From Candidatus Hadarchaeota archaeon (lineage in GTDB: Archaea > CAYQAE01 > CAYVLA01), in NCBI GenBank assembly GCA_964621445.1, contig CAZUNO010000034.1, forward strand, positions 1 to 20,249: 20,249 nucleotides of DNA. Direction: 5' to 3'. A program made the position numbers and the translations under genes. Numbering within the stretch: the first letter of the stretch is position 1; the number at the start of each line of letters is the position of its first letter. Shown here in pieces: positions 1-19,160 of this stretch. Under the pieces are notes generated by a model, which saw only the letters and a list, made by a program, of their open reading frames with translations, had not been told where the DNA came from and made no database searches.

Positions 1-224
1 TCAGCTGGGAAGCTCCCGCCTGCGGTTAGGGAGTATAGCTGTGTCTCGGTGTGGCTGTTGCCGTTCAGTTCGACGATCCATTCGGATACGCCGTCCTGGT
101 CGACGTCGCCCCACCAGCCACCGTTCTCCTGCCTCCTGTTCACCGCGATATGCTCGTTCAGGTAGTAGTACTCTAGGGCACCGGTTGCTGCCCCTTTCCT
201 CCATCCGTTTCCGGAAATCCCGGA
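1..224 (-). pseudogene. Gene fragment running off the window edge, FG-GAP-like motif, no clear start codon
   Basis: Manual translation of a minus frame not in the ORF track: SGISGNGWRKGAATGALEYYYLNEHIAVNRRQENGGWWGDVDQDGVSEWIVELNGNSHTETQLYSLTAGGSFPA... It is closed upstream by TGA at 227-225. The only canonical start is GTG at 143. Confidence 0.4.
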
Positions 225-280
225 TCATGAAATACTTAATAGAGAGTACAGAGCCCCCAGAACGTTCCCGGGCCCTGTTC

Positions 281-1534
281 TTGAGGATATTGGTTATCTG
301 CGTTTTTTCTGTTCTCTTTATTATTCCGATATCCCTGGGTGCCCAGGAGATGGCTTCCAAGAGAGTCCCGGTTCTCTATCTTGGTGATCCTCTTCACGGG
401 TTCACTCCCTTTGTGCCCCTTAATGAGGATGCCATAATCGAGGTCGATCCCATAGCGGCTTATCATCACGGCGGCTACGCCGTCTCTTTGACCAACATCA
501 GACGCTACATCCGGATCTATATGCCACGTAGCTATGACCAGTATCTGGAAAAATACGACGTAATGATCATCTCCAACGCCTATCAGGCATCCATCCACCA
601 CTCCCATCAGATCTGGTTCAGGGACGGTGTCCTGGAAGATGGGATGGGGTTGACCATGATCGCGGGACAGGATAGCTTTGGGGCCTCCAGTAGCCGACCC
701 GATGCCAGCTGGGCAGGGACTCCGGTGGAGGAGGTTCTCCCGGTCAAGATTCCAACCGGTCCCCAGGTAATCGAACATAACTGGATAAGATGGAAGACCA
801 TGCAGATTGTGGATCACCAAAATGAATTCATATCGAGCCTTCCCTATCAACCAAAACCCGGGTACATGAAGATGCCCGTTAATGGTCAGCTCGTTGGGTT
901 GAAGGAGGGGGGTAGGATGCTGGCCCGTTGGATATATCCCGAACTTGGAAATCCACCACTTTACGCAACCTGGGACATCTCATCGGGCAGAACCTACGCC
1001 ATGATGCATGAGTGGGCAAATCCCGGTACCCAGGGAGGGGGCAGGTACTTCTCTCGCTGGGAATACCTACCGGATTATGCCATCAACCTGGTTCTATATC
1101 TAGCGAAGAGGGAGTTATCCCCGGATTACCTCGCCCTCCATCAGTACAGGGAGCTTGTGCACCGTCTATTCATAGGTAGAAACACCCTGATTTCCCTGAT
1201 AGATTTCGTGGAGAGCTTCGGGGGCAACTCCGGGGAGATATACGAGGAAGTGGAGAACCTGGATATCATGGTGAGAGAGACGGAAGAATACTACATAAAC
1301 CAGGACAGCGGTGCCGCTCTTGAGGGGATACGGACCGCTGTGGATAAACAGGGTCAGATCGAGGAGCTTGCCATCGAGGTAAAGGACCGAGCCCTCCTAT
1401 GGGTCTACATCACGGAATGGCTGAGCGTCATGGGGGTAATGCTGCTTTCGGGCTCGATCCTATGGAACCTGATGGTTCGCAGGCGATTATTTAGGGGAGT
1501 CAGCCATACTAGACTTCGGAAAGCCTCCGATTAA
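281..1534 (+). CDS. Membrane-anchored GATase1-like (PF07090/DUF1355-like) protein, paralog A
   Basis: Signal-like LRILVICVFSVLFIIPISLGA; motifs VLYLGD, YDVMIISN, GMGLTMIAGQDSFG..WAGTPVEEVLPV, PLYATWDISSGRT; C-terminal TM plus RRR. Start placed at TTG 281 because a TATA-like AAATACTTAAT lies at ~230-240. ATG 227 is an alternative; GTG 41 is unlikely. Confidence 0.85.
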   Translation: MRILVICVFSVLFIIPISLGAQEMASKRVPVLYLGDPLHGFTPFVPLNEDAIIEVDPIAAYHHGGYAVSLTNIRRYIRIYMPRSYDQYLEKYDVMIISNAYQASIHHSHQIWFRDGVLEDGMGLTMIAGQDSFGASSSRPDASWAGTPVEEVLPVKIPTGPQVIEHNWIRWKTMQIVDHQNEFISSLPYQPKPGYMKMPVNGQLVGLKEGGRMLARWIYPELGNPPLYATWDISSGRTYAMMHEWANPGTQGGGRYFSRWEYLPDYAINLVLYLAKRELSPDYLALHQYRELVHRLFIGRNTLISLIDFVESFGGNSGEIYEEVENLDIMVRETEEYYINQDSGAALEGIRTAVDKQGQIEELAIEVKDRALLWVYITEWLSVMGVMLLSGSILWNLMVRRRLFRGVSHTRLRKASD

Positions 1535-1666
1535 GGATTCTTAGCACCTCTATCAATGAGTCCAGGTAAGGCATGGATTGATCATTACAGGGATTCAACC
1601 CCAGGGAGAGACCCAAACACATTTCCCAGGGGATAATTCCATGTTTCAGGAAAGGATAGATGCGAA

Positions 1667-3118
1667 ATGGCATTGATCGATATTGGTTCCCAAAAGCAGC
1701 TTCTGTTCGACGATTACCTGATGGAGAGTATTACAGACACCAGGCAGGTCCTAAACCGGGCCAGGAAGGTTGTTGATAATCCGGTACTCGCTACCGATCG
1801 TCCCTGGGAGGGCAACGACCTTCGTTTGGGGCAGGTGATTTTTGACGAGCGGGAGGGTATCTTCAGGATGTGGTACTCGGCCACGGAATGTTGGGCTCAC
1901 CAGGGAGAGGATGGTGTTGTGGTGGAAGGGGGAGAGAACAGCTTCATATGCCTGGCAAATTCGGATGACGGAATAAACTGGGAGAGGCCGGAGTTAGGTC
2001 TAGTCGAGTTCGAGGGTTCCTGTGCCAATAACATCCTGCCCGAAGAGATGTATATGCCATACCTCTTTCAGGACCTGCACGAGGAGGACCCTGAAAAAAG
2101 GTACAAGGGTCTCAGACGGACCAGTGGAGAAGACGGCATGCGTTTCGACCTCTACTACTCACCCGACGGATTTGAGTGGTCGCCTTTCCCGAACAACCCG
2201 GCCATCGACACCTCTAGCCTGCCCGGGCGGTGGGGACCTACCCACTTTATGGGCTGGGACCCGATCCGTGAGGTGTACGCGGTCCACATGGAGAACTGTC
2301 ATCACCGACATTGCCCGCTGGGCAAGCGGGTTATAGGAAGATCGGAGAGCCCGGATATGTTGGATTGGACGGAGCCGGAAACCATCATCATTCCCGATGG
2401 GGAGGACTACCCCGACACCCAGTTCTACGCCATGCCGGCCACTACATATGAGGGTGTCTATATAGGCCTACTCTGGAACTTTCGAACAACGAACACAACG
2501 CACTATCCGGAGGTGGTGTTCAGCCGGGACGGTATACACTACCAGCGCAGGTACCGGAAGCCGTTCATCGTCCAGGGAGGTCTGGGGGACTTCGACGCCG
2601 TAAGCATATACGTCCAGGCTCCAGTCATTCACCAGGAGGAGATACTTGTGTACTATACGGGCGTTAACTGGAGGTCCCCGGAGACCCTTCTGGAACTGGG
2701 AGACCGGGCAAGGGCAGGGATCGGCCTGGCCAGGCTGCCGATCGATGGATTCGTGTCCCTGGATGGAAAGATAGGAAAGCCCCCGGCGGTGCTCACCGGC
2801 CAAAAGGGACCCGCGAGCTTCAGCCGTGCGGTCACTCGTTCATTCTCCTTTTCCGGTAGCAAGCTTTACCTAAACCTGGAATCTGCCCGCCAGCAGTGGG
2901 GGGCAGGTCCGTGTGATGTCAGGGTTGAGATTCTGGACTCCATCCATCGCCCAATCGAGGGGTTCACCTTTCAGAATGCCGACCCTATAACCAGTACGTC
3001 TTCATCCCACATCGCCTCCTGGGACGGTGAGCCGGAGGTCGGGGAACTCCAGGGAAGACCGGTTAGGCTCCGGTTCTACTTCAAGAACGCGAAGCTCTAT
3101 TCCTTTCAGTTCAGGTAG
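1667..3118 (+). CDS. Five-bladed beta-propeller glycoside-hydrolase-like protein with C-terminal beta-sandwich, cytoplasmic
   Basis: 483 aa; NPVL..DRPWEG, FRMWYS, SDDGINWERP, YSPDGFEW, SRDGIHYQR repeats; C-terminal GRPVRLRF..NAKLYSFQF. Substrate unknown. Confidence 0.8.
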   Translation: MALIDIGSQKQLLFDDYLMESITDTRQVLNRARKVVDNPVLATDRPWEGNDLRLGQVIFDEREGIFRMWYSATECWAHQGEDGVVVEGGENSFICLANSDDGINWERPELGLVEFEGSCANNILPEEMYMPYLFQDLHEEDPEKRYKGLRRTSGEDGMRFDLYYSPDGFEWSPFPNNPAIDTSSLPGRWGPTHFMGWDPIREVYAVHMENCHHRHCPLGKRVIGRSESPDMLDWTEPETIIIPDGEDYPDTQFYAMPATTYEGVYIGLLWNFRTTNTTHYPEVVFSRDGIHYQRRYRKPFIVQGGLGDFDAVSIYVQAPVIHQEEILVYYTGVNWRSPETLLELGDRARAGIGLARLPIDGFVSLDGKIGKPPAVLTGQKGPASFSRAVTRSFSFSGSKLYLNLESARQQWGAGPCDVRVEILDSIHRPIEGFTFQNADPITSTSSSHIASWDGEPEVGELQGRPVRLRFYFKNAKLYSFQFR

Positions 3119-3152
3119 GGTTCATGTCTACACTACAGTAAGAGGGATGGTT

Positions 3153-3620
3153 CTAACGCCACCCGATGATGCCCGATGCCCATGAAACAGCGCGTTCCAG
3201 CTCTCCTTCCATCAATGGGCCCTCCCTGTCCTTCACGTAGAAGCCCTCGGGTTCGGCAGCCGGGACACCCCCCTTCCTGCGAAGTTCCTTGTCGATACGA
3301 GGGGCGGCATAGCCGCCGATCTTCATGAATAGACGCAACCCCCTTCCTACCTCCTCGCCGGAGATCCTGGTGTCGAAGGCCGCCACCTTCACCTCCTTAA
3401 GGGCGGAGTTGGGGATATCGCTCAGGAATTTTCTAGTTGCATCCGAGGCCCTGAAGGCGCGAGTTGGTGAACCCACGATTAGGAGGTCCAGGGGTTCCAG
3501 CCCCCGTGCATCGATTTCCCCGACTTTGTGCATGACGACTTCATCGATGGCGCCGGTAATGGCCTCGGCTACCTTTTTCGTATTACCGAAAAAGGAGTCA
3601 TAAAGTACCAATCGGTTCAT
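3153..3620 (-). CDS. Flavodoxin family protein
   Basis: YDSFFGNTKKVAEAI FMN loop, LIVGSPT, VAAFDTR, GPL..GELERA..W; SD GGGGTG 5 nt upstream of ATG. Confidence 0.93.
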   Translation of the reverse strand: MNRLVLYDSFFGNTKKVAEAITGAIDEVVMHKVGEIDARGLEPLDLLIVGSPTRAFRASDATRKFLSDIPNSALKEVKVAAFDTRISGEEVGRGLRLFMKIGGYAAPRIDKELRRKGGVPAAEPEGFYVKDREGPLMEGELERAVSWASGIIGWR

Positions 3621-3654
3621 CTGTACACCCCATGAAATTCTGCCAGTAAGCCTT

Positions 3655-3909
3655 CTATTCCGAGTTATCGGCCTCCATGGTCAAAGCGACGAAAGCACCA
3701 ATGGCGCCCATGACGCCGCCAATTATGACCATGACTATGGTATCGCTGATCACGAACCCAATCATGCCTGGTCCTTCATAGTAGAAAATGGATCCCCACA
3801 TTACCGGGGCAATTATGAGCCCAGCAATCAGGTGATGGAGAAGGGCTACCGTTGCTCCCAGGGCGCTGCCGCCTAGGATCTTCTCCATATCCATGCTCTG
3901 AGGATCCAC
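3655..3909 (-). CDS. Small 2-TM membrane protein (downstream half of an apparently split 4-TM protein)
   Basis: Gly/Ala-rich TM helices (GGVMGAIGAFVA). GTG start immediately follows the in-frame TGA of the upstream ORF, with GGGGGTGA 4 nt upstream. Confidence 0.65.
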   Translation of the reverse strand: MDPQSMDMEKILGGSALGATVALLHHLIAGLIIAPVMWGSIFYYEGPGMIGFVISDTIVMVIIGGVMGAIGAFVALTMEADNSE

Positions 3910-4119
3910 TCAATCACCCCCCAGTATCCTGGCCCTAATGGGGTCCCCGTTTGCCCATGTGTAGCCCGCATAGCCGAGTATAGCGAGCTTGATGGCCCAG
4001 AAGAGGCTGGACCCCCCGGGAGCCATGTTCCAAACTATCTCAAGTAGGACCAGCGCGATGACAGGGCACATGGCCGCCCTGAGCACGGCACAACAGTCGA
4101 TACCAAGGATATCCACCAT
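3910..4119 (-). CDS. Small 2-TM membrane protein (upstream half)
   Basis: Two hydrophobic segments (PVIALVLLEIVW; LFWAIKLAILGYAGY). Start ATG 4119 or GTG 4128. Confidence 0.65.
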   Translation of the reverse strand: MVDILGIDCCAVLRAAMCPVIALVLLEIVWNMAPGGSSLFWAIKLAILGYAGYTWANGDPIRARILGGD

Positions 4120-4469
4120 ATATATCACGGTGAAAAGGCGATACTTGTTGAAAAGCTTTGCCGGGCTGCCAATTGCTAGGAATATTAAAGGATTTGAAAT
4201 ACCCTATCCTCTAATTATGGGATATGGCATGCCTGGATGGTTTTCCTGAATAGAAAGTAGACCCAATGGGGTGATAAGCATGTGTTTTGGGGAGTGGGAC
4301 ACTGATGGACTTGGTGCTTTTGCCCACCAGATCTACAAGTTGAGGACCTAAATTGGTAAAAAGGAGAAGCGGTGGGCACCCTGTCATTCATCGATGGGTG
4401 GTCGCGACCGAGATGAAGTAATTTCATCCTGTCCTTCCTGCTTCTGTTGATATGGTGGTATGTTTACTT

Positions 4470-5768
4470 CTAGGAGTCGAAGGTGGTCGTTTTGGTCTCC
4501 TGGTAGAGCTTGCCCCTTATCATGATTTCCCAGACCAGAAAACCGGTTAGGACCGAGGTCCCCGCAACCGACAACCATTCTATGATATACACCCAGGTCA
4601 GCGCCCGGTCCTTGGCCTCTAGAGCCATTTGCATATTCCCTGAAATGGAGGTAATCGATTTTCCGAGCTCTTCCAAGGCCATCCCGTATTCCCCGTCCAT
4701 CCAGTGGTCGTCAGCCCGGTTACGAATCCCCTCGGTGATTGCTAGATGCTCATAGAGCTGGTTGGTGTTGGCGCCGAAACCCTCCGCAAATTCTATAACT
4801 GACAGGAGGAGCGTCATTTGTTGGTTGTATTTGGTTATCAACATGCGGAGTTCGTGCGTCACCGCTACCTCTGGTATACTGGCCCTGGCAGGGAAGTAAA
4901 CCATCCTGGCGATTACATCCTTCCAGTACTCCCAGCGGTAGAAATCTATCATTCCATGGCCAGCCCAGTTGAAGATGAATGCCAGGGTCCTTCCCTTCCC
5001 CACATCCCAGTAAACCAGCGCGGGATCGTCCTTCGGGTCCGAGGGGTGGGTCTCGTCCGTGGTCACTGCGACGGTGGTTGAGCCGGACTTGGGGTGAGGC
5101 CTGTTGGTCGACCATATCATGGGCATGTCCTCCCAGTCTATACCGCCGGTTAGGGGGCTTTGGGTTACGGGCCTCAGCCTGAATAGGTGATCCCGGTAAC
5201 TGGCATGGTCGGTTCCCTCAACCGGCAGTAGCTGGCCGATTGGTGTGGGGTCCCAGGGCGATCCGGGCTTAGGTGTCCAGGCCGTGGAGGTGGTTCCAAA
5301 TGACGTCGCGTCATCGGCCATCAACAGACCGAACCCGTGGTCCTCAACCGCTGCTTTGGTCCAGACATGGAACCTGGCTTTCAGATCCTCCGAACGGATC
5401 CCGGCTATTATCAGCATGTCGTATTTCTCAACCATGTCATCTTCGCTTCTAGGTAGGTAAAGGCGCAGCCACCTCTGCATGCTCCGGTAACCCGTGGCCC
5501 AGCTGGTGCCTATCTCGGCCTCGATCCTGGTCAGCTGTATCTTTGGGTCCTCTATCATGGCCGGGGCCGGGTATCCGGGACCGAGATCGGAGTCACCTAT
5601 GTACAGAACCCTTATTCTCCCGGTCTTGGCGTCGGTTCTCGCACCACTTGGGGGCAAGAGCATAATCAGGAATATGAGGGAAAGAAGGATCGCCGGTGTT
5701 AGCGGCCCAAGAATCGGTATTTCCGTTATGTCTGTACGGTTCATCGAGGTGTGGCACTGCAAAGGCAT
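4470..5768 (-). CDS. Membrane-anchored GATase1-like protein, paralog B
   Basis: Signal-like AILLSLIFLIMLL; RVLYIGD, RLYLPRS..EKYDMLII, GFGLLMADDATSFG..WDPTPIGQLLPV, PALVYWDVGKGRTLAF; same C-terminal TM motif as paralog A. Confidence 0.88.
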   Translation of the reverse strand: MPLQCHTSMNRTDITEIPILGPLTPAILLSLIFLIMLLPPSGARTDAKTGRIRVLYIGDSDLGPGYPAPAMIEDPKIQLTRIEAEIGTSWATGYRSMQRWLRLYLPRSEDDMVEKYDMLIIAGIRSEDLKARFHVWTKAAVEDHGFGLLMADDATSFGTTSTAWTPKPGSPWDPTPIGQLLPVEGTDHASYRDHLFRLRPVTQSPLTGGIDWEDMPMIWSTNRPHPKSGSTTVAVTTDETHPSDPKDDPALVYWDVGKGRTLAFIFNWAGHGMIDFYRWEYWKDVIARMVYFPARASIPEVAVTHELRMLITKYNQQMTLLLSVIEFAEGFGANTNQLYEHLAITEGIRNRADDHWMDGEYGMALEELGKSITSISGNMQMALEAKDRALTWVYIIEWLSVAGTSVLTGFLVWEIMIRGKLYQETKTTTFDS

Positions 5769-5800
5769 GGCCCCCTTTCCCTATAATTATTGGATGGAGA

Positions 5801-5816
5801 TACTTAAATTGGTTTG
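5801..5816 (-). promoter_or_regulatory. Putative archaeal BRE/TATA promoter of paralog B
   Basis: Minus strand CAAACCAATTTAAGTA, about 32 nt upstream of ATG 5768. Confidence 0.5.
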
Positions 5817-5843
5817 AAATCCTATGGGGCATGCTATTATACA

Positions 5844-5951
5844 CTACTTCTTGGATTTCGGCTTATCCCCTTTTTTCTTCTTGTGATCATTCAATTCTTT
5901 TTGAGTATCGAAATCCAGACCGCATGACTTGCACTTGTATTTTTCCGACAT
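5844..5951 (-). CDS. 35-aa C2H2-like zinc-finger microprotein
   Basis: MSEKYKCKSCGLDFDTQKELNDHKKKKGDKPKSKK* matches Y-x-C-x2-C-x3-F-x5-L-x2-H. It has its own TATA-like box ~30 nt upstream and is below the ORF-track size cutoff. Confidence 0.8.
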   Translation of the reverse strand: MSEKYKCKSCGLDFDTQKELNDHKKKKGDKPKSKK

Positions 5952-5980
5952 CCTAGATCGATCGGAGGATTGTGGAAGGA

Positions 5981-5994
5981 GATAAAGGGGTTTC
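5981..5994 (-). promoter_or_regulatory. Putative BRE/TATA promoter of the zinc-finger gene
   Basis: Minus strand GAAACCCCTTTATC, ~30 nt before ATG 5951. Confidence 0.5.
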
Positions 5995-6079
5995 CATTCT
6001 CCATCCGGAGATACCGAATATTGCCCCTGGTACCGGTAGAATACATTGGGGGAGGATTAGATTTCTGGCTGGGTGATTT

Positions 6080-7318
6080 TTACTCCTGGGATAGCCTGGT
6101 GATGGTTACCTCCCTGTACAGGCCCCTCCTGACCATCAGCCACCACAGGGTCACCCCGGAGACCAGGGCAACGGCGGTGGTGGCCAGCCACTCCGAGATG
6201 TAGATCCAGGTAAGGGCGCTGTCCTTTGCCTGGTTGGCCTGGTCCATGGCCATGTTGGCAAGTTCCAGGGCCTCCTCCATCTCCTCGCTGGCCTCCTGGT
6301 ATCTGTGTTCCAGATAGTCTAACTCGGCCTGTTCCCTGACCTCGTAGGCATCGGACAGGGTTTCATGCGCCCGGTTGGTATTGGCCCCGACCCGGGAAAC
6401 GAAGTCGGTTACGCTGTGGAACATGGAGGCCATGTCCAGGAAGTACTGGAACTGGACCTTTACGTTCTTGGCGTTCACCGCTTGATCCAGGGTAAAGGTA
6501 TCCCATTCCAGGGTATGAAAACAGATGTTGAGGAATATGAGCTCCCACCATTCCCCGGCTCTCTGCCACTGGGGTCTATCGTAGCCCGGGTGGATCCCGA
6601 AGGACCAAGCTTCGGATTCGCCGTAGGGCCAGGAGATGAATGCGGGGGCCTCGGGTTCCCAGGCCGGGCCGTTGATCATGTATATCCATATCGTTGCTCC
6701 CTCCTTGGCATAACAGGGCCGACATGTCCTATAAATTGGGTCGTCGAAGATACCGGTCTCCTCAAAGGTGGTGAACACTGGGGAGCGGTCCGACGCCAGT
6801 CTTAGGGGTCTGTTGGGCCACCACTCGGCAAATCCAGATTTCTTGGATTCGGCCACGTACCTCTCGTAGTCGATGGGGAAAACGTCCGACAGCGGGCTGG
6901 CCAGCCAGGGGTCCTGGACCTCGGCCCAGGTGCTCAGAGGGTATCCAAAGGACACCTTCCCCTCCATACCTACAAAGTTGACCATCATCTGCTGCTGCTC
7001 CATGGTAAAGAGGTCCATCTTCGGAGCGTTTATGAACAGCACCTCATACTCCAGGAGGCTGTCCCTGTTTCTGGGAAAGTATATCCTGATCTGGCGATGG
7101 AGCTGTTCATCGGACAGTCCGGCAAAGAAGGCCCTCCCAGGGGCCAGAGTGACATCGACACCCGGTTCGGCATCGCCAAGGTGGTTCACCCAACTGCGCA
7201 GATTGCCAACGGTAAGAAATTCCAGCAACCTTTCCTGCTCAGGGACTGCGGCAAAGGCGACCTGATTGAGGATTACCAGGGTCATCAGGATAAGGAGTAG
7301 CTTTCCGTGAAAGGACAT
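6080..7318 (-). CDS. Membrane-anchored GATase1-like protein, paralog C (most diverged)
   Basis: Start re-placed at MSFHGKLLLILMTLVILNQVAFA (ATG 7318, preceded by GAGGGGG and a TATA-like TTTTTATC at ~7343-7350); RQIRIYFPRN; PWLASPLSDVFPI; conserved stalk and TM motif. Confidence 0.85.
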   Translation of the reverse strand: MSFHGKLLLILMTLVILNQVAFAAVPEQERLLEFLTVGNLRSWVNHLGDAEPGVDVTLAPGRAFFAGLSDEQLHRQIRIYFPRNRDSLLEYEVLFINAPKMDLFTMEQQQMMVNFVGMEGKVSFGYPLSTWAEVQDPWLASPLSDVFPIDYERYVAESKKSGFAEWWPNRPLRLASDRSPVFTTFEETGIFDDPIYRTCRPCYAKEGATIWIYMINGPAWEPEAPAFISWPYGESEAWSFGIHPGYDRPQWQRAGEWWELIFLNICFHTLEWDTFTLDQAVNAKNVKVQFQYFLDMASMFHSVTDFVSRVGANTNRAHETLSDAYEVREQAELDYLEHRYQEASEEMEEALELANMAMDQANQAKDSALTWIYISEWLATTAVALVSGVTLWWLMVRRGLYREVTITRLSQE

Positions 7319-7725
7319 ATGATGGCCCCCTCGACTTCGATAGATAAAAAGATTGTAGTCCGAGTTGAAATATTGATCTTTTAGCATGTATCCATCTGAT
7401 TGTTCGATGCCGGATAGCTTTCAGGTCCCTGGGTCCGTTACTTTTTGGTTTATCTTTCAGAGTCTTCAGGAAACCGTTGGGCCATATGGAGAGAACCATA
7501 TTCAATATAACCCCAACGGCTACCATGAATTCCCAAAAGAGCGATTGAGTTAAGTCTGGGATTTTCAGGAGAAGAATTTTGCACGTTGTTAGGTTACGGG
7601 ACAGATTAAGAGAATGACCGATCAATAAAGTGTCCCTTTAATCTAAAAATGGCTGATTATAGGGGCCTCCCACGGATACATGTGTACCTTTTTGAAATGT
7701 GGAGACATAACTGGTCTAGATAAGG

Positions 7726-9346: not shown

Positions 9347-9433
9347 TTGGCCGTTATTGGGGTGTGGTGAGGTTTTTGTTTGGGTTGTAGAGTTCTGAGG
9401 TTCCTTCTTTTTTTGGGGGGGGTTTTTCTGCCT

Positions 9434-11071
9434 CTACATTTGCTTTGTCAGTATCTTGGGGGGTTTCTCGACGTTCAGGTTTTTGAGGGTTTCTTGTTGT
9501 GTTTGGTTGATTTGGTTTCTTTGGTAGATTTGCTGGCCTTGAATCTCTATGATGTTTACCTTGATCTGTTCTAGTTTGTCCATGATCTCTCGGAATGTTT
9601 GCCCGGTTTTTTTCTCCATCAATCTTCTTATCAGGAGGGCTAGGATGCATATGAAGATGTGTCCTTTCACCCTTTTGTCGGTGTGGTGGTAGATTGGCCT
9701 CAGCTTTATCAGGTTTTTGAGTTCGTTGGAGGCTTTCTCAACGTCTTTCAACTCTTTGTAGGAGTTCATGGCTTGTGACGGCTCGAGATTGGTGGTGGTG
9801 ACCAGTAGGAATTTTCCGGCGATGGCTCGCTCGTACCGCCACGCCTCCTGGTTGAGTTGGCACTTGACTGTGTCGTCGATGTCGACATCGAACAGGCGTT
9901 TGTTTTTGCCGAGGATCTTTTTGACTTGGTTCATGGCTCCCTGCTTGGTCATGGGACGTCCGCGTTCTTCTCCGCTCCGGGATTTCTCGAATCTCGCCCT
10001 CAACTCTTGGAGCTCTTCCTCCGCCTCCTCTTTCACTTTTTTCAGGGTCTCCAGTCTAGCTTTGCGTGTTTCCTGGTCCAGGCAGAGGATGTATCGACGT
10101 GTCGCGCCGTCGATCTCCTCGCGGTGAACCTCGTTCGCCCTCACCTTGCCCGAACCCGCCGAGTCGGGGACCTCTCTGGCCAGGAGCTTCTCGGCGAGCT
10201 TGTTCTTCCGGCGCCTGGTTGAGAGTATGTACCTGTAATTTTCCTCGAGCTTGTCCAGGTTCGGTAAAGAGATAACTCCCCTATCCGCTACAAACGCTAC
10301 CTTTTCTATCCCGAATCTTTTCTTCAGATCCGTCACCAGCTTCTCCAAGGTCGATTTGTCCGCGGTGTTTCCCGCCCACACTCTGTGGTAGATTGGAATC
10401 CCGTCCGCCATAACCACCCCCAGAACGAGCTGCTTCCTGTCAGGCCGGTGATCCCTGGAGTACCCGTACTCAGCCAGCCCTGGTCCCTCTCCCTCGAAGT
10501 AGGTGCTGGTCAGATCGTAGAGCACCAGGTCCAGCGACAGGTCCAGGGACTGTTTGAGGTTGTGGAACATATTCTCCTCGATCCTGTCTTTCTCCTCAAC
10601 CAGCACGTCCAGCGATCTGTAGATCCACTGCCTCTCCACCCTGACCGGGGTGTAAGCCTTCTCGTTAATCCACCTGCACGCGGACAGATCGCTCGACGGG
10701 TCATACAACCGGTTGACCGTGAGGAGAAAGATAACCCTCTCCAGGTCGAACTCGCACCTCCTCCCGGCGAAAGAACCGGCCAGAGCTTCTCGAACCCTAT
10801 CCTTTCTCCAAACCTCGTCAGCCGCCCACAAAACCCCTAGCTCGAGCTGACGCTTAATCTCGAGCTCCTTCAGCTTCACCAGCTTCTCTCCCTTCTCCAT
10901 AGCCTCTAGAACCGATTCAGCCCACTCCCAATCCTCCTCGCTCTCCATCCTTCCCAAACTCTTTATCACTTTTTGAGTAGTTTGCCCATCCTCCCTTCTC
11001 ACCGACCGTACAATCTGAGCGTACTCCCGCGTTTCCCCCTTGTACCTAGTTGTCGCTTTCTTCAGGTGCAC
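9434..11071 (-). CDS. IS1634-family DDE transposase
   Basis: LYDLTSTYFEG, YGYSRDHRPD..Q, GNTADKSTL, VADRG, Y..L..VE....LK, LRPIYH...RVKGHIFIC. Confidence 0.96.
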   Translation of the reverse strand: MHLKKATTRYKGETREYAQIVRSVRREDGQTTQKVIKSLGRMESEEDWEWAESVLEAMEKGEKLVKLKELEIKRQLELGVLWAADEVWRKDRVREALAGSFAGRRCEFDLERVIFLLTVNRLYDPSSDLSACRWINEKAYTPVRVERQWIYRSLDVLVEEKDRIEENMFHNLKQSLDLSLDLVLYDLTSTYFEGEGPGLAEYGYSRDHRPDRKQLVLGVVMADGIPIYHRVWAGNTADKSTLEKLVTDLKKRFGIEKVAFVADRGVISLPNLDKLEENYRYILSTRRRKNKLAEKLLAREVPDSAGSGKVRANEVHREEIDGATRRYILCLDQETRKARLETLKKVKEEAEEELQELRARFEKSRSGEERGRPMTKQGAMNQVKKILGKNKRLFDVDIDDTVKCQLNQEAWRYERAIAGKFLLVTTTNLEPSQAMNSYKELKDVEKASNELKNLIKLRPIYHHTDKRVKGHIFICILALLIRRLMEKKTGQTFREIMDKLEQIKVNIIEIQGQQIYQRNQINQTQQETLKNLNVEKPPKILTKQM

Positions 11072-11124: not shown

Positions 11125-11171
11125 ACAAATGTGAATTAAAGCACGCTAAAACCTTTACTCCCCAAACAAAG

Positions 11172-11191
11172 ACCCAACTGTGAAAAGTGAG
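11172..11191 (-). repeat. IS terminal inverted repeat (upstream of transposase)
   Basis: Reverse complement CTCACTTTTCACAGTTGGGT. Confidence 0.8.
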
Positions 11192-11325: not shown

Positions 11326-11994
11326 GGGAAAAAGATAATCGCGTTTCACCTCGGTTCCTGCGTGGTGAATGACAAGTACGGGCGAAGCCGCGATCCCCTG
11401 GAATGCGAGAAGCACATCAGGACCCAGATGGAGGCCCTGGACATGGATTTCGCCCCGCTGGTCAATGTCCACTACGTTTCAAACGTCAAAGCCTGGAAGG
11501 ATATCAACCGCAAGGGAATATTCGACCTGGCCCTAGAGCTGAGGAAAAGTGGTCTGGCGGATGGTATCTCGGTAAGCACCCACGACCCGGGGGTCATGGT
11601 TCTGGCGGCGGAGGCGGGAGCTGACACGGTGATGTACCAGGTAAATGCCTCTAATGACGGGTATGAGGCCAGGGACGATGCCCTGGTTACCTGCCGCGAT
11701 CTCTGCGTCGGGGTGGTGGCCATGAAGCCCTTCGCGGGAGGGCATTTGCTTGGGGCAGGGAAGAAGGTCAGAATCCCGGCCTACAAGACGGGATGGAGGG
11801 CCAGGACCTTGAGGGTTCCCCCGTCCGTGACGACCGTGAACCTCCTCGGATACACCCTCAGACAGCCCGGGGTGTGCACCGCGGTAACCGGGGTGTCCTC
11901 GACAGAGGAGCTGGTGGCGGATCTCGCCTACCTGAAAGCATCGGAGAAGGAGAGGGACCCCTCGGGAATCGTAAAGGAAATGGCTGAGGAGTAG
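11326..11994 (+). pseudogene. N-terminally truncated aldo/keto reductase (ORF 11362-11994), fused in frame to the sulfatase fragment
   Basis: GISVSTH, VGVVAMKPFAGG, L.Y.L.QPGV....GVSS.EEL are present. The N-terminal LG.TG..VS.IGLG and catalytic-Asp region is absent. Confidence 0.75.
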
Positions 11995-12050: not shown

Positions 12051-13442
12051 TTATGGTAGGTAAGCCCCGTGTTCCTTCAGCCTTCTCCTGAGTTCCCAGG
12101 TGTCCACCTCGTGCACATCGACTTCGTCCTGGTCCTGGATGGCCATGGCGGCCGCGATCCCCGCGGCCTCACCGGTGTTCAGGCAGCAGGGCATTATCCG
12201 TATGGAGCCGTTGACCTGTCTGTCGCTTGATATGCAGCGCCCGGCCACCAGCACGTTTTTCAGCCCCTCGGGTGTCAGGCATCGGTAGGGAACGCCGAAG
12301 CTCTCTCCCTTACCTAGCTTGGCCATGCTCTTCTTTACGGATTCCTTCATTTCCTCCACCGATTTGCCGGCCAGGGACTTGGCACTCTCTCTGGGGGAAT
12401 GCACATCAATTCCGTAGGCGTTCCGGCATATTTCGTCAGGGAAGCTCCTACGGTAGAGGTAGTCCTGGACGGTCAGGTAGTAATCTCCCATGATCCTCCT
12501 GGTCTCCCGGGCTCCGATTAAACCGCCGGTGGCCACAAGGTGTGAGTTGGCGAATGCAGGGTGGTGCTCTGAGAATGCCTGGTGGTACTGGGCCGCGATC
12601 TTTCGTCCCCTGACCAGGTTGCTGGAGACGGATTGAGGATCGGTGTTGTCCAGGCCGTAGACGTGACCGGTGTTGAAACCGTAGGTTCCGGGTCCGATCT
12701 TGATGTTGCAGGAATGGAGGTCGATTATATCCGGGTACTCATCGGATCGTATGGCCTCGTGGACCGGGCTATCCGGGTCGTAGAAGTGGATGCGAGGCCC
12801 CTTTGCCAGGGCTTCCTCGTCGATGTTGGAGATCATGAAGCACAGGGAGCCGGGCTGCATCCGGCCGTCCTGGTCCCCCTTCTCGAATTCGGCTCCCGCC
12901 CAGGCGGCGAGGTCCCCATCTCCCGTGCAGTCCACGTAGGCCTTGGCCGTAATGGCGGTTAACCCGTTCTTGTTGGAGACGATCAGGGCATTGACCCTTC
13001 CATCGGCGGACTCGACTGAGGTAAGCCGGGTGCAGAAGAGGACATGCGCCCCGAGCTCGCCGACCATGTGGTCGTAGACCCTCTTCAGCAGCTCGGGGTC
13101 GATGGCGGGCGTTGCCAGGGGGTTCTTCTCCATCTTGGCCTTGAGATGGGGCATGCCGTCCCTGCATTCCTCTAGCACCCGCTCTGCCAGTCCCCGGGCG
13201 ATGATCTTCTCCCCGTCGCTATAGCCGCAGAACCAGGGGACCAGGCCCATGGTACCCATGCCTCCCAGGGCACCGGTGGCCTCGATGAGCAGGGTCTTTG
13301 CCCCCTCCCGGGCGCAGGCCGCGGCCGCCGCACATCCCGCGGGCCCCCCGCCGACCACCACCACGTCCCAGGAATCGTCCAGGGGTAGCTTCCGTTCCTC
13401 CATGAGGTAATCATTCACTTTCAATACCCGGTTGGGTAGCAA
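12051..13442 (-). CDS. FAD-dependent oxidoreductase (PF12831 type)
   Basis: VVVVGGGPAG, LGGMGT, VDCTGDGDLA, RETRRIMG, VPYRCL, VAGRCIS, GEAAG. Start may be GTG 13418. Confidence 0.93.
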   Translation of the reverse strand: MLPNRVLKVNDYLMEERKLPLDDSWDVVVVGGGPAGCAAAAACAREGAKTLLIEATGALGGMGTMGLVPWFCGYSDGEKIIARGLAERVLEECRDGMPHLKAKMEKNPLATPAIDPELLKRVYDHMVGELGAHVLFCTRLTSVESADGRVNALIVSNKNGLTAITAKAYVDCTGDGDLAAWAGAEFEKGDQDGRMQPGSLCFMISNIDEEALAKGPRIHFYDPDSPVHEAIRSDEYPDIIDLHSCNIKIGPGTYGFNTGHVYGLDNTDPQSVSSNLVRGRKIAAQYHQAFSEHHPAFANSHLVATGGLIGARETRRIMGDYYLTVQDYLYRRSFPDEICRNAYGIDVHSPRESAKSLAGKSVEEMKESVKKSMAKLGKGESFGVPYRCLTPEGLKNVLVAGRCISSDRQVNGSIRIMPCCLNTGEAAGIAAAMAIQDQDEVDVHEVDTWELRRRLKEHGAYLP

Positions 13443-13561: not shown

Positions 13562-15349
13562 ATGATCTCAGCTATGGATAAGAGAACCCTGATTATCACC
13601 TTGTCAGTGGTATTAGCGGTAGGGATTTGTTTTGGGGCGGAGGAATTCGATTTTACGAGGGCTATTTACAATTCCCTGAATTACAGCGAGGATGTTAGCT
13701 TTGGGCTGAATACGGAATACACCAGAAATAATTGGTTCCGCATGGGGCCAGAACAGGCTATTGAAAGATTGAAATCCAATAGCCTGAGGGCGGCTGAAAA
13801 CAATATGACCCATATCGCGGGTCTATATTACCTGCAAGCAAAGCCCGATTTCGAATACGCCAGGGCGATAAATGAGAATGGTCACGAGGAGGAAAATACC
13901 CCTTCACCGGTTGACAGGACATACTGGCTGAGGGTGATCCATGAACCCGCATTGAAGGTTGCCAATTTGTCGCTCCACTATTCGATATCGGCGCTGGTTT
14001 TTGATTTCGAGCTTTATTATGCATCTAAACACGATACCGGCGAGGACCATAAATGGCGTCGAAGCTTCTATACCTACGACACGGCTGCGCTGAGGGATTT
14101 CGCGAACTACACCGGCATTGAAATTCCCGAGATGGAGGCTGACGAAAGGCATGATTGGCTGACATCGAAAGGCCTCATTCAGGATTATATGAGTTGGCAG
14201 GAGGAAGTGGTTTGGGAAATGGCCAGAGAGACGGAGAAAGCTGTTCATTCCATCAACCCTAACCTTTCTCTTGGTGTCCTGGGTTTCAATGATTTTTGGC
14301 TGGATTGGAGTACTCTGGAAGGTTTCTTCAATGGTGTCACGGTTACCCTTTGGACCGAAAAGACGTACGGTGGTTACGAGGAGAAAACGGTAGAATACTT
14401 GCGTAATCAATCCCGCGTTCATGGTCTTGATTGCCAGGTGCTCCCTGGGCTATGGTGTCAGGCCATGAAACCATGGGTCCTGATCGAGGACATGGAACGG
14501 GTAACGAGGCATAATGGGGCCTTCTGGATCTATAGACAGAACAAGGAGCAAGCCTACAAACTTGCTGAGGAGGAAGAATATGGAAAGGCATTCCGATTAT
14601 TCAATCGTTATGTATTAATGGATCAATCGCAGGCCGAACCTCTCCCCTCTTTTTACCTCCACCCGGGAATCGTCGCGCTGCCCTACATGGGGTCGAATGG
14701 GGTATCGGTTCTCATGAAGCCAAAAATCCAACTGGATCCAAACGATGAGGTTTACCTAATCACCGGTGCCCAGGAGCTAGAATACGTCGGCATGAATCTA
14801 AGCGTGCGGAAAATCTCATCGAGAAGAATTGCCGCCGTCGATCTCCCATGTTTTATGTACGGTTTTGAGGAGAGGGATCTGTTAGCAACTGAAGCATGGT
14901 CCTTGATCCTGGAACTTAGGAGCCTACTTGAGTCATATGGCGACCTTGGGTTGCTTGTAATGGAGGATCTGGAGACGAAGCTATCTAATGCGCTTCTGGA
15001 TTTCGAGGCCGGGAGATATAGTGAGGTTAAAGCGACTCTGGATCCTCTTTCGGAGTCTGGTTACTCTCAGGTTTTTAAGTCAATCTATCCCTCAGTGCTG
15101 GAGGCTTTGGAGAGCCCCAGGGAGTCGGATATCCCCCTGGGATCTATACGAGAGATATTGAACGCGGAAAAGCTATATGGATCAGGGAGAACCGCTGAGG
15201 GCAATACCTACCTTGTGCGGGGCCTCAGGTCTTGGTCCTTGGCAGTTAGTGAGTTTCCTCCGGGGCTGTCTGTGTCGTTGCTGGTCTTGTTTGTCCTGGT
15301 TACCGGTTCTGGCCCATACCATTTTTGCTGCCAGGATGGTGGGTACTAG
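13562..15349 (+). CDS. Secreted, C-terminally anchored protein with putative glycoside-hydrolase-like TIM barrel
   Basis: Signal peptide KRTLIITLSVVLAVGICFG; ALVFDFELY, YD..ALRDF..Y, HSINPNLSLG; helical C-terminal domain; VSEFP plus hydrophobic tail. The GH-like call is tentative. Confidence 0.75.
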   Translation: MISAMDKRTLIITLSVVLAVGICFGAEEFDFTRAIYNSLNYSEDVSFGLNTEYTRNNWFRMGPEQAIERLKSNSLRAAENNMTHIAGLYYLQAKPDFEYARAINENGHEEENTPSPVDRTYWLRVIHEPALKVANLSLHYSISALVFDFELYYASKHDTGEDHKWRRSFYTYDTAALRDFANYTGIEIPEMEADERHDWLTSKGLIQDYMSWQEEVVWEMARETEKAVHSINPNLSLGVLGFNDFWLDWSTLEGFFNGVTVTLWTEKTYGGYEEKTVEYLRNQSRVHGLDCQVLPGLWCQAMKPWVLIEDMERVTRHNGAFWIYRQNKEQAYKLAEEEEYGKAFRLFNRYVLMDQSQAEPLPSFYLHPGIVALPYMGSNGVSVLMKPKIQLDPNDEVYLITGAQELEYVGMNLSVRKISSRRIAAVDLPCFMYGFEERDLLATEAWSLILELRSLLESYGDLGLLVMEDLETKLSNALLDFEAGRYSEVKATLDPLSESGYSQVFKSIYPSVLEALESPRESDIPLGSIREILNAEKLYGSGRTAEGNTYLVRGLRSWSLAVSEFPPGLSVSLLVLFVLVTGSGPYHFCCQDGGY

Positions 15350-18834: not shown

Positions 18835-19160
18835 TTACCCTCGCCCGTGTTCTTTAGAGGTCAGCTCCGGAGATGGAGGTGCGGGGAGCGGACTGGACCT
18901 GGAGTGATAGGTTTGGGCTGTGGCCGGTCTTGGTCCTTATCCGGAAACCGGTTTTGCTTCCCTTACCATTACTATGCTGTCACGATCCGTGATTTCAAAG
19001 CCAGACGGTCCTTCAAACCTCCAGTCATAGGGGACGGGTAGCCAGGCAATACTTTTCTGGTAGGGCCTCAAGAGCCGTGAAGATGTTGAGATGGCCGGCC
19101 CAGCCCAGGTTCTTTTGGCGTTGTTTGCATCGGCCCTAATTGATAAGGAGGAGAGACCTT

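Follow-up and report, generated by a model that had tools for sequence, protein, structure and literature searches.

Three genes on the 20,249-nucleotide stretch of Candidatus Hadarchaeota DNA analysed here (the window) encode members of a large, lineage-specific archaeal family of cell-surface proteins, in which an extracellular α/β head of about 250 residues, homologous to the GATase1-like proteins of PF07090, is followed by a helical pedestal, a highly conserved transmembrane (TM) helix and a short basic tail. The interpretation that we favour, and regard as evenly poised, is that these type-I surface proteins make up a repertoire particular to the lineage, in which diversified heads that probably bind ligands (possibly glycans) sit on an unvarying module for positioning and assembly, and that this module acts as a permanent anchor.

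Three homologous genes and their relatives

Paralog A (435 aa) occupies positions 227..1534 of the forward strand, and paralogs B (432 aa, 4470..5768) and C (412 aa, 6080..7318), the latter being the most divergent of the three, lie on the reverse strand. Pairwise BLASTP comparisons (A vs. B, E 3e-55, 28% identity; B vs. C, E 1e-22; A vs. C, E 4e-19) bear out the proposal of a preliminary description of the window that these are three real and mutually homologous ORFs, and the family HMM scored A at 413.5 bits and C at 327.5 bits. The same description had started paralog A at TTG 281, which lies in frame but 18 codons inside the gene; ATG 227 is the most likely start. The database copy of paralog B begins two codons downstream of the start used here. 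The ORF of paralog C is open as far as 7387, ATG 7318 being nevertheless preferred, with GAGGGGG at -14 to -8 and a resulting N-terminus that fits the family.

The motifs quoted in the preliminary description were all recovered in A, B and C. The R..R[IL]Y.PR motif lies at residues 93-101 of A (R..RIY.PR, 503..529, forward strand), 99-107 of B (RWLRLYLPR, 5448..5474, reverse strand) and 75-83 of C (RQIRIYFPR, 7070..7096, reverse strand), with R102, Y104, P106 and R107 (B numbering) conserved in at least 90% of 59 sequences. A turn of the form [DE]F....G[AG]N, whose F and G are invariant across the same 59 sequences, connects pedestal helices 1 and 2 and corresponds to DFVESFGGN in A (residues 326-334, 1202..1228, forward strand), EFAEGFGAN in B (326-334, 4767..4793, reverse strand) and DFVSRVGAN in C (305-313, 6380..6406, reverse strand). 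The gap-free tail consensus, KD.AL.W[VI]YI.EWL-x8-[ST]G-x3-W..M[VI]R..L[FY]-x5-T.[LF], closes all three proteins.

A tail HMM retrieved 412 representative proteins at E<=1e-3, and in the best 150 of these the tail was C-terminal without exception, in proteins of at most 442 aa. The anticipated genome-wide expansion was confirmed: three MAGs carry 24 full-length copies between them at 14 loci, in tandem sets of up to four, and each of two related archaeal MAGs encodes at least 10, frequently as tandem neighbours. Theionarchaea (phylum Methanobacteriota) was the sole organism name among the relatives. Six cross-MAG sister pairs received 96-100% ultrafast bootstrap support and, judged from this phylogeny, the copies are old, expanded paralog lineages. 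The outcomes that the preliminary description had named as counting against it (a C-terminal region matching an already characterised family, a mere few copies, or equal conservation of head and tail in a larger alignment) were none of them observed.

The head domain

Assignment of the head to the PF07090 group, already suspected from the sequence, is supported by profile and structure comparisons alike. The family profile matched the Planctomyces limnophilus protein (3rht), STM3548 (2gk3) and STM1381 (3soz) with E-values of 1e-15 to 4e-18 (3.9e-18, 6.1e-17 and 1.3e-15, respectively), and the same three chains were the top Foldseek matches for the AF2 models of both B and C (E 3.6e-10 and 5e-7 to 2gk3), with TM-scores of up to 0.72 on the target. 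Pfam searches gave 16.4 bits to PF07090 for A (sub-threshold), a score under the cut-off for B and no match for C, and several relatives exceed the cut-off (e.g., 62.6 and 61.2 bits). The three homologues share with the family the motifs YD.iil, G.GLlM.G..SF.G, evLPV and G.Gr..a. They are, however, soluble cytoplasmic proteins of about 250 aa that lack the signal peptide, R..RLY.PR, pedestal, TM helix and tail. Paralog C had been thought to have lost the SFG segment, but it still reads ...GKVSFGYP..., the diverged part being G.GL.M only. No PF07090 protein, 2gk3, 3soz and 3rht included, is known to have an assigned function, and STM3548 is described as unstudied in passages of PMC13432705.

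The Cys nucleophile of true amidotransferases is not conserved in the head, with Cys present in at most 13 of 59 sequences in any column, and it is this missing nucleophile that motivates reading the head as a binding domain. The conserved polar residues are Ser156, His305, Asp284 and Asp300 (48, 53, 57 and 54 of the 59 sequences), which could form a non-canonical catalytic site.

The same fold was found with lower Foldseek significance (E 1e-6 to 5e-3) in other non-catalytic domains, namely ThuA (1t0b, 4pxy), the middle domain of GH42 β-galactosidases, the Agd3 N-terminal domain and the GIFT domains of IFT52/GldG, several of which reside inside carbohydrate-active enzymes. None of these domains has the pedestal and anchor of the family, whose sequences were without match to Pfam ThuA, Glyco_hydro_42M and ABC_transp_aux. 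Another parallel is offered by P0239, a bacterial protein of 763 aa with a PF07090 domain (39.7 bits) and, as in the family, terminal hydrophobic segments. The family profile match to P0239 is confined to the head (E 1.8e-8); the protein is much longer, with N-terminal hydrophobic segments and extra domains, its C-terminal hydrophobic segment lacks the KDRAL/EW/LYREV motifs, and the FGAN hairpin is absent from it altogether.

Membrane topology and the fixed-length hairpin

Paralogs A, B and C each have just two hydrophobic segments, at the N-terminal and C-terminal ends (in A, residues 13-44 and 389-417 only), and the TM helix is followed by 7, 3 and 4 K+R residues in the three proteins, respectively. 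The order of N-terminal hydrophobic signal segment, head, pedestal, TM helix and tail is thus that of a type-I membrane protein, an architecture of which we are highly confident; on the strength of AXA-like sites in relatives, the signal peptide is assumed to be cleaved. In the AF2 model of B (pLDDT 89.9, pTM 0.85), head strands and helices span residues 52-291 and are followed by helices 301-330, 336-357 and 361-418, whereas the model of C (pLDDT 87.1) places the corresponding helices at 277-309, 315-336 and 340-397. Helix lengths are equal in the two models (30, 22 and 58 residues), and the final 58-residue helix passes unbroken into the membrane to end in a short Arg-rich tail.

Between the turn and the tail motif lies a hairpin made up of helix 2, a three-residue loop and the beginning of helix 3, variable in sequence and fixed in length. 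It covers 1229..1381 in A (forward strand; helix limits transferred from the models of B and C), 4614..4766 in B (reverse strand; helix 336-357, loop, helix 361-385) and 6227..6379 in C (reverse strand; helix 315-336, loop, helix 340-364). The exact 51 residues reported between the N of the turn and the K of the tail motif hold in all three proteins, with the K of KD 54 positions beyond the G of FG; among 225 relatives this spacing is 54 in 217 and 55 in 5, the other 3 lacking one end. Among the top 30 covarying pairs by MI-APC, 11 have i+j of 71-77, about 1.3 being expected by chance (binomial P 2e-8), an antiparallel set to which the FGANT Thr and the KDR Arg belong as a pair. Such covariation supports an antiparallel pairing between helix 2 and the N-terminal half of helix 3 that would fix the spacing, a support not fully independent of the AF2 models, since both draw on the same alignment information. 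The hairpin would thereby bring the FGAN turn next to KDRAL, right at the outer face of the membrane, as a conserved "collar", a geometry that would account for the requirement of exactly 51 residues, and the head would be held some 4-4.5 nm off the membrane in a fixed orientation.

Past the hairpin, the collar segment, TM helix and tail occupy 1382..1531 in A (forward strand; KDRAL, W..Y..EW...G...W.LM and a cytoplasmic RRRLF....TR), 4473..4613 in B (reverse strand; KDRAL, E397/W398 at the outer edge of a 399-417 core and a short basic tail) and 6083..6226 in C (reverse strand; KDSAL, a 377-396 core directly after E376 and RRGLYREV..TR). The charged Glu noted previously in the TM segment is indeed conserved, all 59 aligned sequences having it, but it would lie at the outer margin of the hydrophobic core and not in mid-bilayer.

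Conservation of the anchor

Over 351 pairs of 27 copies, mean pairwise identity was 0.53 in the turn and likewise in the TM helix plus tail, against 0.25 in the head and 0.21 in the stalk helices. The predicted conservation peak in the TM helix and tail was therefore upheld; the stalk, by contrast, previously called conserved, is the least conserved part, with only its length and the FGAN turn fixed. Information content follows the same trend (2.7-3.2 bits in TM helix and tail vs. 1.7-2.7 in the head), and of six close pairs, five had their lowest dN in TM plus tail and five their highest in the stalk. Among 159 tails, W7 is present in all, E12 in 154, and the cytoplasmic Thr and Tyr in 156 and 145, respectively. 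Conservation along the TM helix showed no one-sided moment (p = 0.19), and conservation all round the helix would imply packing against other helices.

Possible roles of the family

In the favoured reading, collar, TM helix and tail would form the constant positioning and assembly module, with TM helices packing against their own copies or against an unlinked common membrane component; this assembly role is plausible, if slightly on the doubtful side. The heads would have diverged into old paralog lineages binding different extracellular ligands, with no amide transfer, and the tail would be a permanent anchor rather than a cleaved sorting tag. The preliminary description had raised, among other possibilities, a new C-terminal sorting signal. 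Were it of the PGF-CTERM/PEP-CTERM/LPXTG type, the C-terminal ~45 residues would be recognised and cleaved by a dedicated archaeosortase-, rhomboid- or sortase-like enzyme and the head then joined to lipid or cell wall. Superficially the tail has the tripartite look of those signals (motif, hydrophobic helix, Arg cluster), it ends the protein 46-55 residues past the K of KDRAL and, like them, recurs in many proteins of one genome. Yet of the 145 newly listed proteins among the 150 best matches, the 65 that are full-length all carry the same head, none of 66 longer candidates scored, and in an atlas search with the tail the only other match at >=0.9 was a 150-aa archaeal cluster. Since, in addition, NCBIfam and Pfam CTERM models gave no match at E<=10, we can say with good confidence that the tail is not a generic sorting signal. 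Known sorting signals have a short outer-edge motif as their conserved part, whereas here conservation is highest in the TM residues and in the cytoplasmic LYREV..TR; the tail is moreover modelled as an unbroken, high-confidence helix continuing rigidly from the stalk without flexible linker, and neither sortase-like nor rhomboid genes were found among 181 ORFs of 15 loci. A cleaved tail is accordingly very unlikely. Less likely still is an accessory-subunit role in a transporter or in a MoxR/vWA (Bat-type) membrane complex, comparable to GldG or to membrane-bound bacterial PF07090 proteins such as P0239. A Foldseek match to the IFT52 GIFT domain (5fmr, E 4.5e-5) and an archaeal DUF4350/GIFT cluster scoring 0.82 in the atlas point that way, but ABC-transporter, MoxR (AAA_3) and DUF58 matches are missing from the 181 ORFs of the 15 loci, PF09822 was unmatched, the single VWA protein is 8 kb distant from a partial family copy, and the C-terminal segment of P0239 has no KDRAL-type motif.

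Two further explanations are improbable too, but less so. The heads might be extracellular enzymes with a non-canonical site, such as hydrolases of the Ser/His/Asp kind whose substrate is a cell-surface or environmental polymer, with the pedestal serving as a molecular ruler for how far from the membrane catalysis takes place. Ser-nucleophile peptidases are among the proteins with a class I GATase-like fold, the four polar residues above are conserved, the SFG motif is shared with 2gk3, 3soz and 3rht, and a fixed stalk length and the CAZyme-like neighbours found at some loci would suit such a role. However, His305 and Asp300 would lie in pedestal helix 1, absent from the cytoplasmic homologues, which makes an ancestral triad unlikely; the nucleophile-elbow equivalent is Gly or Asp, and no PF07090 member is known to have an activity. 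Slightly less probable are single-pass receptors whose variable heads couple through the Glu/Trp TM helix and the LYREV..TR tail to a shared, unlinked signalling partner in the membrane or cytoplasm, in the manner of the charged-TM assembly of immunoreceptors with DAP12/CD3; a receptor repertoire and a common membrane partner had both been raised in the preliminary description. The near-invariant Glu, Thr and Tyr, the TM helix conserved all round and the retention of old paralogs with diversified heads would agree with this. Against it, the Glu lies at the boundary of the hydrophobic core and not at its centre, so that pairing with a buried charge is not required; the cytoplasmic tail has only ~15 residues, two-component and kinase genes are absent from the neighbourhoods, and no recurrent linked partner gene was found at the 15 loci, all-against-all clustering of 183 ORFs giving eight other recurrent sets, one of three and seven of two.

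As to the ligands of a binding head, non-catalytic domains of GATase1-like fold occur in GH42 enzymes and in Agd3 (PMC7229062). CAZyme-type neighbours (apiosidase-like, Abhydrolase_7/AXE-like esterases, GH39/10/42-like, FG-GAP/carrageenase-propeller and BNR) occur at 5 of 15 loci and are absent from the other 10, a raw count without background control. Together with the fold likeness to Agd3 and GH42, these neighbours may be taken as a weak hint of glycans, binding of which by the heads is rather unlikely.

The same MAGs encode a second membrane-anchored family (L004:2804-3907 and L007:5103-6155), whose genes adjoin family members and whose products combine a signal segment, a ThuA/GATase1-like head (Pfam ThuA sub-threshold, E 0.0044) and a C-terminal helix with TM anchor. 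It lacks the helix 1/helix 2 hairpin, the FGAN turn and the KDRAL/EW/LYREV motifs, and an hhalign probability of 69% (E 4.3e-5) to the family profile makes a distant relationship borderline.

The three paralogs and their relatives

An ORF search of the window placed the three paralogous genes, here called A, B and C, at 2/227-1534 (plus strand), 4470-5768 (minus strand) and 6080-7318/7387 (minus strand), respectively. Their products can be aligned over their full length, with BLASTP E values of 3e-55 for A and B (28% identity), 1e-22 for B and C and 4e-19 for A and C. The sequence features on which the preliminary description was built recurred in this alignment in all three proteins, namely the motifs R..R[IL]Y.PR and [DE]F....G[AG]N, the gap-free tail KD.AL.W[VI]YI.EWL-x8-[ST]G-x3-W..M[VI]R..L[FY]-x5-T.[LF] and the constant 51-residue stretch that separates the N of G[AG]N from the K of KD (a G-to-K distance of 54). 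Some details needed revision. The start assigned to A (position 281) is an in-frame TTG, the ATG at 227 being more likely, and the GL.M...SFG segment thought to be lost from C retains its SFG tripeptide, only the preceding G.GL.M having diverged. Each protein carries exactly two hydrophobic segments, one per end, the C-terminal one being followed by 7, 3 and 4 Lys plus Arg residues in A, B and C. Two terminal hydrophobic segments with an Arg/Lys cluster are the signature of a predicted signal peptide combined with a type-I membrane anchor. A search for an upstream DNA motif common to the three genes returned only the Shine-Dalgarno-like octamer AGGGGGCC, located just before the B and C starts (window 5769-5790 and 7319-7335, minus strand); no such element precedes the ATG of A at 227.

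Proteins of this family are already deposited in databases, as hypothetical or PF07090-containing proteins. A search with B yielded 78 clusters at E<=1e-3 (from 4257 candidates), nearly all of 400-440 aa, and the only names found on these relatives were 'hypothetical protein [Theionarchaea archaeon]' and the JGI label 'uncharacterized membrane protein'. An HMM built from the C-terminal 110 residues of the three paralogs was searched against 1.84 billion representative proteins and produced 412 matches at E<=1e-3 (367 at E<=1e-10), far more than a few copies. In all of the best 150 of these 412 matches the tail reached the C-terminus, and none of those 150 exceeded 442 aa. When a head-only HMM was applied to 145 of them, the family head was present in every protein of at least 370 aa (65 of 65) and in 35 of the 80 shorter ones. 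Most of the remaining 45 headless proteins begin within the pedestal region (the three helices following the head) and look like N-truncated fragments or gene calls. Two short database relatives, P0123 and P0218, have a truncated AP_endonuc_2 or FAD_oxidored fragment ahead of the tail; they were considered as alternative heads and judged instead to be chimeric or frameshifted gene calls. A tail-restricted search of 66 longer candidates (757-2160 aa) scored none of them.

The taxonomic reach of the family appears narrow. A profile search scoring the 8000 most word-rich candidates recovered the same family plus one distant PF07090 protein of 763 aa, and gained no wider reach among those candidates. 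In the ESM atlas, 21+8 look-alike clusters were found at 0.9 or above, which among the matches listed were 100% archaeal, with Methanobacteriota (the phylum to which NCBI assigns the Theionarchaea) as the commonest phylum. The tail alone as query retrieved only a 150-aa archaeal cluster, at 0.90, which probably consists of truncated family members.

Genomic distribution and paralog history

The presence of three copies within 7 kb had been taken as a hint of a genome-wide expansion, and this proved correct. Two strict peptide patterns derived from the three-sequence tail alignment were used to scan 185,579 species genomes, and the 66 matching stretches were reduced to 14 loci in three MAGs, whose records are labelled Hadarchaeota or Thermococci. 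Among 1378 ORFs of at least 70 aa from these loci and the window, hmmsearch found 38 matches, 27 of them at >=250 bits. At this level the window holds three copies and the three MAGs at least 10, at least 10 and at least 4; these numbers are lower bounds, because the strict patterns miss many family variants. Tandem sets reach four copies (L007, L008). Decayed copies were also seen, one frameshifted and split over three reading frames (L010:8505-9647) and another reduced to a 40-codon remnant with only the KDRAL...TM part, ending in a stop (L013:9980-10102); each is a pseudogene or else a product of misassembly.

In an IQ-TREE phylogeny, the 27 full-length copies fell into two major clades (100% and 92% support), with C in one and A and B in the other. 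Six sister pairs joined copies from different MAGs at 96-100% support, indicating paralog lineages older than the divergence of these organisms, and one recent within-genome duplicate was found. The family can thus be described as a lineage-specific, expanded set of type-I surface proteins, each combining a diversified PF07090 head with a constant module of pedestal, collar (the KDRAL motif) and TM helix.

Predicted architecture and conservation

Monomer models built by AlphaFold2 from family alignments were of good quality (B, pLDDT 89.9 and pTM 0.85; C, 87.1 and 0.81). In both, an alpha/beta head is followed by helices of 30 (B) or 33 (C), 22 and 58 residues, spanning 301-330, 336-357 and 361-418 in B and 277-309, 315-336 and 340-397 in C. 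The FGAN motif forms the turn between helices 1 and 2, and the 58-residue helix contains both KDRAL and the entire TM segment. Covariation analysis (MI-APC, 195 sequences after filtering at 80% identity) placed 11 of the 30 strongest pairs on an antiparallel diagonal (i+j = 71-77), against 1.3 expected by chance (P 2e-8), and one of these pairs links the Thr of FGANT to the Arg of KDR. A hairpin made of helix 2 and the initial 25 residues of helix 3 would accordingly bring the FGAN turn beside KDRAL, at the outer face of the membrane; such an arrangement would explain why both motifs are conserved together and why the 51-residue spacing does not vary. Since an alpha-helix rises 1.5 Å per residue, helix 1 (30 residues) would lift the head by about 45 Å. 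The most hydrophobic 19-residue window begins just after the conserved Glu (B 399-417, C 377-396), so this residue is likely to sit on the outer margin of the membrane core and not in its middle.

Conservation is distributed very unevenly along these proteins. Across 74 sequences, information content was 2.7-3.2 bits per position in the last 50 residues, 1.7-2.7 in the head and 1.7-1.8 in the two stalk helices, that is, the hairpin region between the FGAN turn and KDRAL. Mean pairwise identity among the 27 full-length copies from the window and the three MAGs (351 pairs) was 0.25 in the head, 0.24 in helix 1, 0.53 in the turn, 0.21 in the stalk helices and 0.53 in KDRAL, TM and tail. Head and tail are therefore not equally conserved, as the preliminary description had anticipated; the stalk, which it had also called conserved, is so in length and not in sequence. 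In 225 sequences the distance from G to K was 54 in 217 and 55 in 5, the other 3 lacking one end. F327, G332, W392 and E397 (B numbering) are invariant in a 59-sequence alignment, and in 159 tails W7 occurs in all, K1 in 158, M31 in 157, T43 in 156 and E12 in 154 (the others having four Gln and one Asp).

The comparison of dN/dS between head and tail was made on six closer pairs, in which dS was above 1 or undefined in nearly all regions; owing to this saturation the ratios are unreliable and only the dN ranks are usable. These ranks partly bore out the expected constraint on the C-terminal region, with TM plus tail lowest and the stalk highest in five of the six pairs. The recent duplicate in L014 opposes the trend, its dN being higher in TM plus tail (0.20) than in the head (0.12).

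The head: fold and possible activity

The proposed resemblance of the heads to PF07090 was substantiated by profile comparison, the family profile matching the structures 3rht (3.9e-18), 2gk3 (6.1e-17) and 3soz (1.3e-15), with the next match at E 0.064. The B and C models have a class-I-GATase-like alpha/beta fold, and for both the top Foldseek chains were 2gk3, 3soz and 3rht (2gk3 at E 3.6e-10 for B and 5e-7 for C), followed by GH42 middle domains, ThuA-like proteins, IFT52-N, Agd3 and true amidotransferases. The window paralogs miss the Pfam gathering cut-off for PF07090 (27 bits), with 16.4 bits for A, 17.8 for B and no match for C. Relatives in other loci exceed it (L002:9113-10342, 62.6 bits; L008:16653-17972, 61.2 bits; L011:9128-10348, 55.1 bits), and about one third of the database relatives carry a precomputed PF07090 match. 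Of the structures concerned, 3RHT was termed uncharacterised in the available portion of PMC7229062, and for STM3548 no studies were found according to the accessible part of PMC13432705.

As to what the heads do, the mature A, B and C proteins have 1-3 Cys each and no alignment column contains more than 13 Cys in 59 sequences, meaning that the nucleophile of the Cys-His-Glu amidotransferase triad is absent. The same 59 sequences show conserved polar residues in the head and helix 1 (R99, R102, R107, D117, S156, D284, D300, H305 and R308), and a non-canonical enzyme is a serious rival to the reading that we prefer, in which the heads would have a binding role, possibly for glycans. This preference is based on the missing nucleophile, on the fact that the fold is often non-catalytic in carbohydrate-active enzymes and on a weak signal from the gene neighbourhoods.

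The PF07090 domain is widespread; three crystal structures are available, and its function is not known. In the archaeal branch the domain would stand outside the cell, carried by a rigid pedestal whose membrane helix is exceptionally conserved, and in at least 10 old paralogs per genome. This provides a concrete handle on its role, be it binding or catalysis at a set distance from the membrane.

Gene neighbourhoods

When 181 ORFs from 15 loci (167 neighbours and 14 from the window) were annotated with Pfam, no constant neighbour gene emerged among them. The same survey detected no ABC transporter, archaeosortase/exosortase, rhomboid, MoxR or DUF58 protein. The sole VWA protein (L006:8261-9892) lies about 8 kb from a partial family copy and, as AAA_3 and DUF58 are without match in the 15 loci, no Bat/MoxR-vWA operon (MoxR ATPase, DUF58 and vWA) is present there. 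Regarding GIFT-domain proteins, the likeness to IFT52 is only at fold level (Foldseek E 4.5e-5), and there was no PF09822 match (GldG / ABC_transp_aux) to accompany the lack of ABC transporters in these loci. In all-against-all clustering, eight other neighbour sets were the only ones to recur, one with three members and seven with two. CAZyme-type genes occur in 5 of the 15 loci, as a raw count, and comprise apiosidase-like proteins, Abhydrolase_7/AXE-like esterases, a GH39/10/42-like TIM barrel, FG-GAP/lambda-carrageenase-propeller proteins and a BNR protein.

Genes of the URO-D family (uroporphyrinogen-decarboxylase/methyltransferase-like) lie near family members in 3 of the 14 loci (L002:460-3312, L008:19665-20318 and L013:5452-6498), with no functional link evident. 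Two further genes located beside family members, L004:2804-3907 (minus strand) and L007:5103-6155 (plus strand), encode a second type of protein with signal peptide, head, single helix and C-terminal TM segment. Its head shows distant similarity to ThuA/GATase1-like domains (69% probability and E 4.3e-5 by hhalign against the family profile; E 0.0044 for Pfam ThuA); unlike the family, this type has neither the FGAN hairpin nor the KDRAL tail.

Role of the membrane module

A new C-terminal sorting signal had been suggested as one explanation for the conserved tail. NCBIfam searches with the whole A, B and C proteins matched no sorting model, nor did any appear at E<=10 with the C-terminal 60 aa (NCBIfam) or 110 aa (Pfam) of the three paralogs as queries. 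A tail shared by many unrelated families was not seen either, whether in the 145 proteins tested among the best 150 of 412 matches or in the 66 longer candidates. Considering the single head family, the absence of a curated model, the rigid helix and the conserved cytoplasmic tail, a generic sorting signal is unlikely. Both the TM helix, on all its faces, and the LYREV..TR tail end are strongly conserved, which would call for specific helix packing, either by self-association or against a common partner that would be genomically unlinked. The conservation is not biased to one side of the TM helix (moment p = 0.19 at 100 degrees), and this suggests contacts on more than one face. A two-copy complex prediction for B residues 45-432, in which the controls were not folded, scored 0.00 (mark 0.42) and weighs neither in favour of self-association nor against it.

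In its most developed form, the receptor idea would envisage a modular archaeal surface system in which at least 10 variable GATase1-like ectodomains per cell use the near-invariant Trp/Glu/Gly TM helix and the LYREV..TR cytoplasmic stub to plug into a single common membrane partner, unlinked in the genome, or into mixed paralog hetero-oligomers. Such an archaeal analogue of charged-TM receptor assembly, sensing or capturing different extracellular polymers, is a scheme to which we assign a low likelihood. If the TM helix did mediate assembly with a common partner, it would represent a new principle of archaeal envelope organisation.

The family itself is real and structurally well defined, and among uncultured sediment archaea of the Theionarchaea type it probably makes up a major class of proteins at the cell surface. 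No published description was found in searches of the literature on PF07090, GATase1-like membrane proteins, Theionarchaea, STM3548/STM1381/2GK3/3RHT/DUF1355 or COG5426/IPR010768, and the accessible part of a paper on Theionarchaea (PMC9258230) does not mention it. Neither Pfam nor NCBIfam contains the pedestal-plus-TM module; it could be introduced there as a new domain, to the benefit of the annotation of several hundred protein clusters.

Other genes in the window

A transposase gene of the IS1634 family (9434-11071, minus strand; NCBIfam NF033559, 353.5 bits) lies between two imperfect 36-nt inverted repeats (9371-9406 and 11139-11174). The next ORF, for an aldo/keto reductase (11362-11994), is N-terminally truncated, its match being confined to positions 86-275 of the 291 in the profile; the insertion may have disrupted it. 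A 595-aa protein (13562-15349, plus strand) has an N-terminal hydrophobic segment and a different C-terminal one, and gave no Pfam or NCBIfam match; with a homologue directly adjoining a family member (L004:10375-11157), it may be, from its sequence, another uncharacterised membrane-anchored surface protein. It adjoins an 865-aa protein with a clostripain-type peptidase C11 domain (15346-17943, minus strand; PF03415, E 3.3e-37).

A hint of sugar metabolism comes from a 483-aa protein without Pfam match and with a weak NCBIfam match to beta-1,2-mannobiose phosphorylase (1667-3118, plus strand; E 0.012), a PF12831 FAD-dependent oxidoreductase (12051-13442, minus strand; E 7e-109) and a BNR/sialidase-like repeat protein (19140-20228, plus strand; PF13088, E 3.7e-31). 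A partial ORF running off the left edge (3-143, minus strand), which starts ...GGWWGDVDQDGVSEW... and has no Pfam match, resembles an FG-GAP/VCBS-type repeat by eye. Family members in L004 and L005 likewise have large FG-GAP propeller proteins as neighbours.
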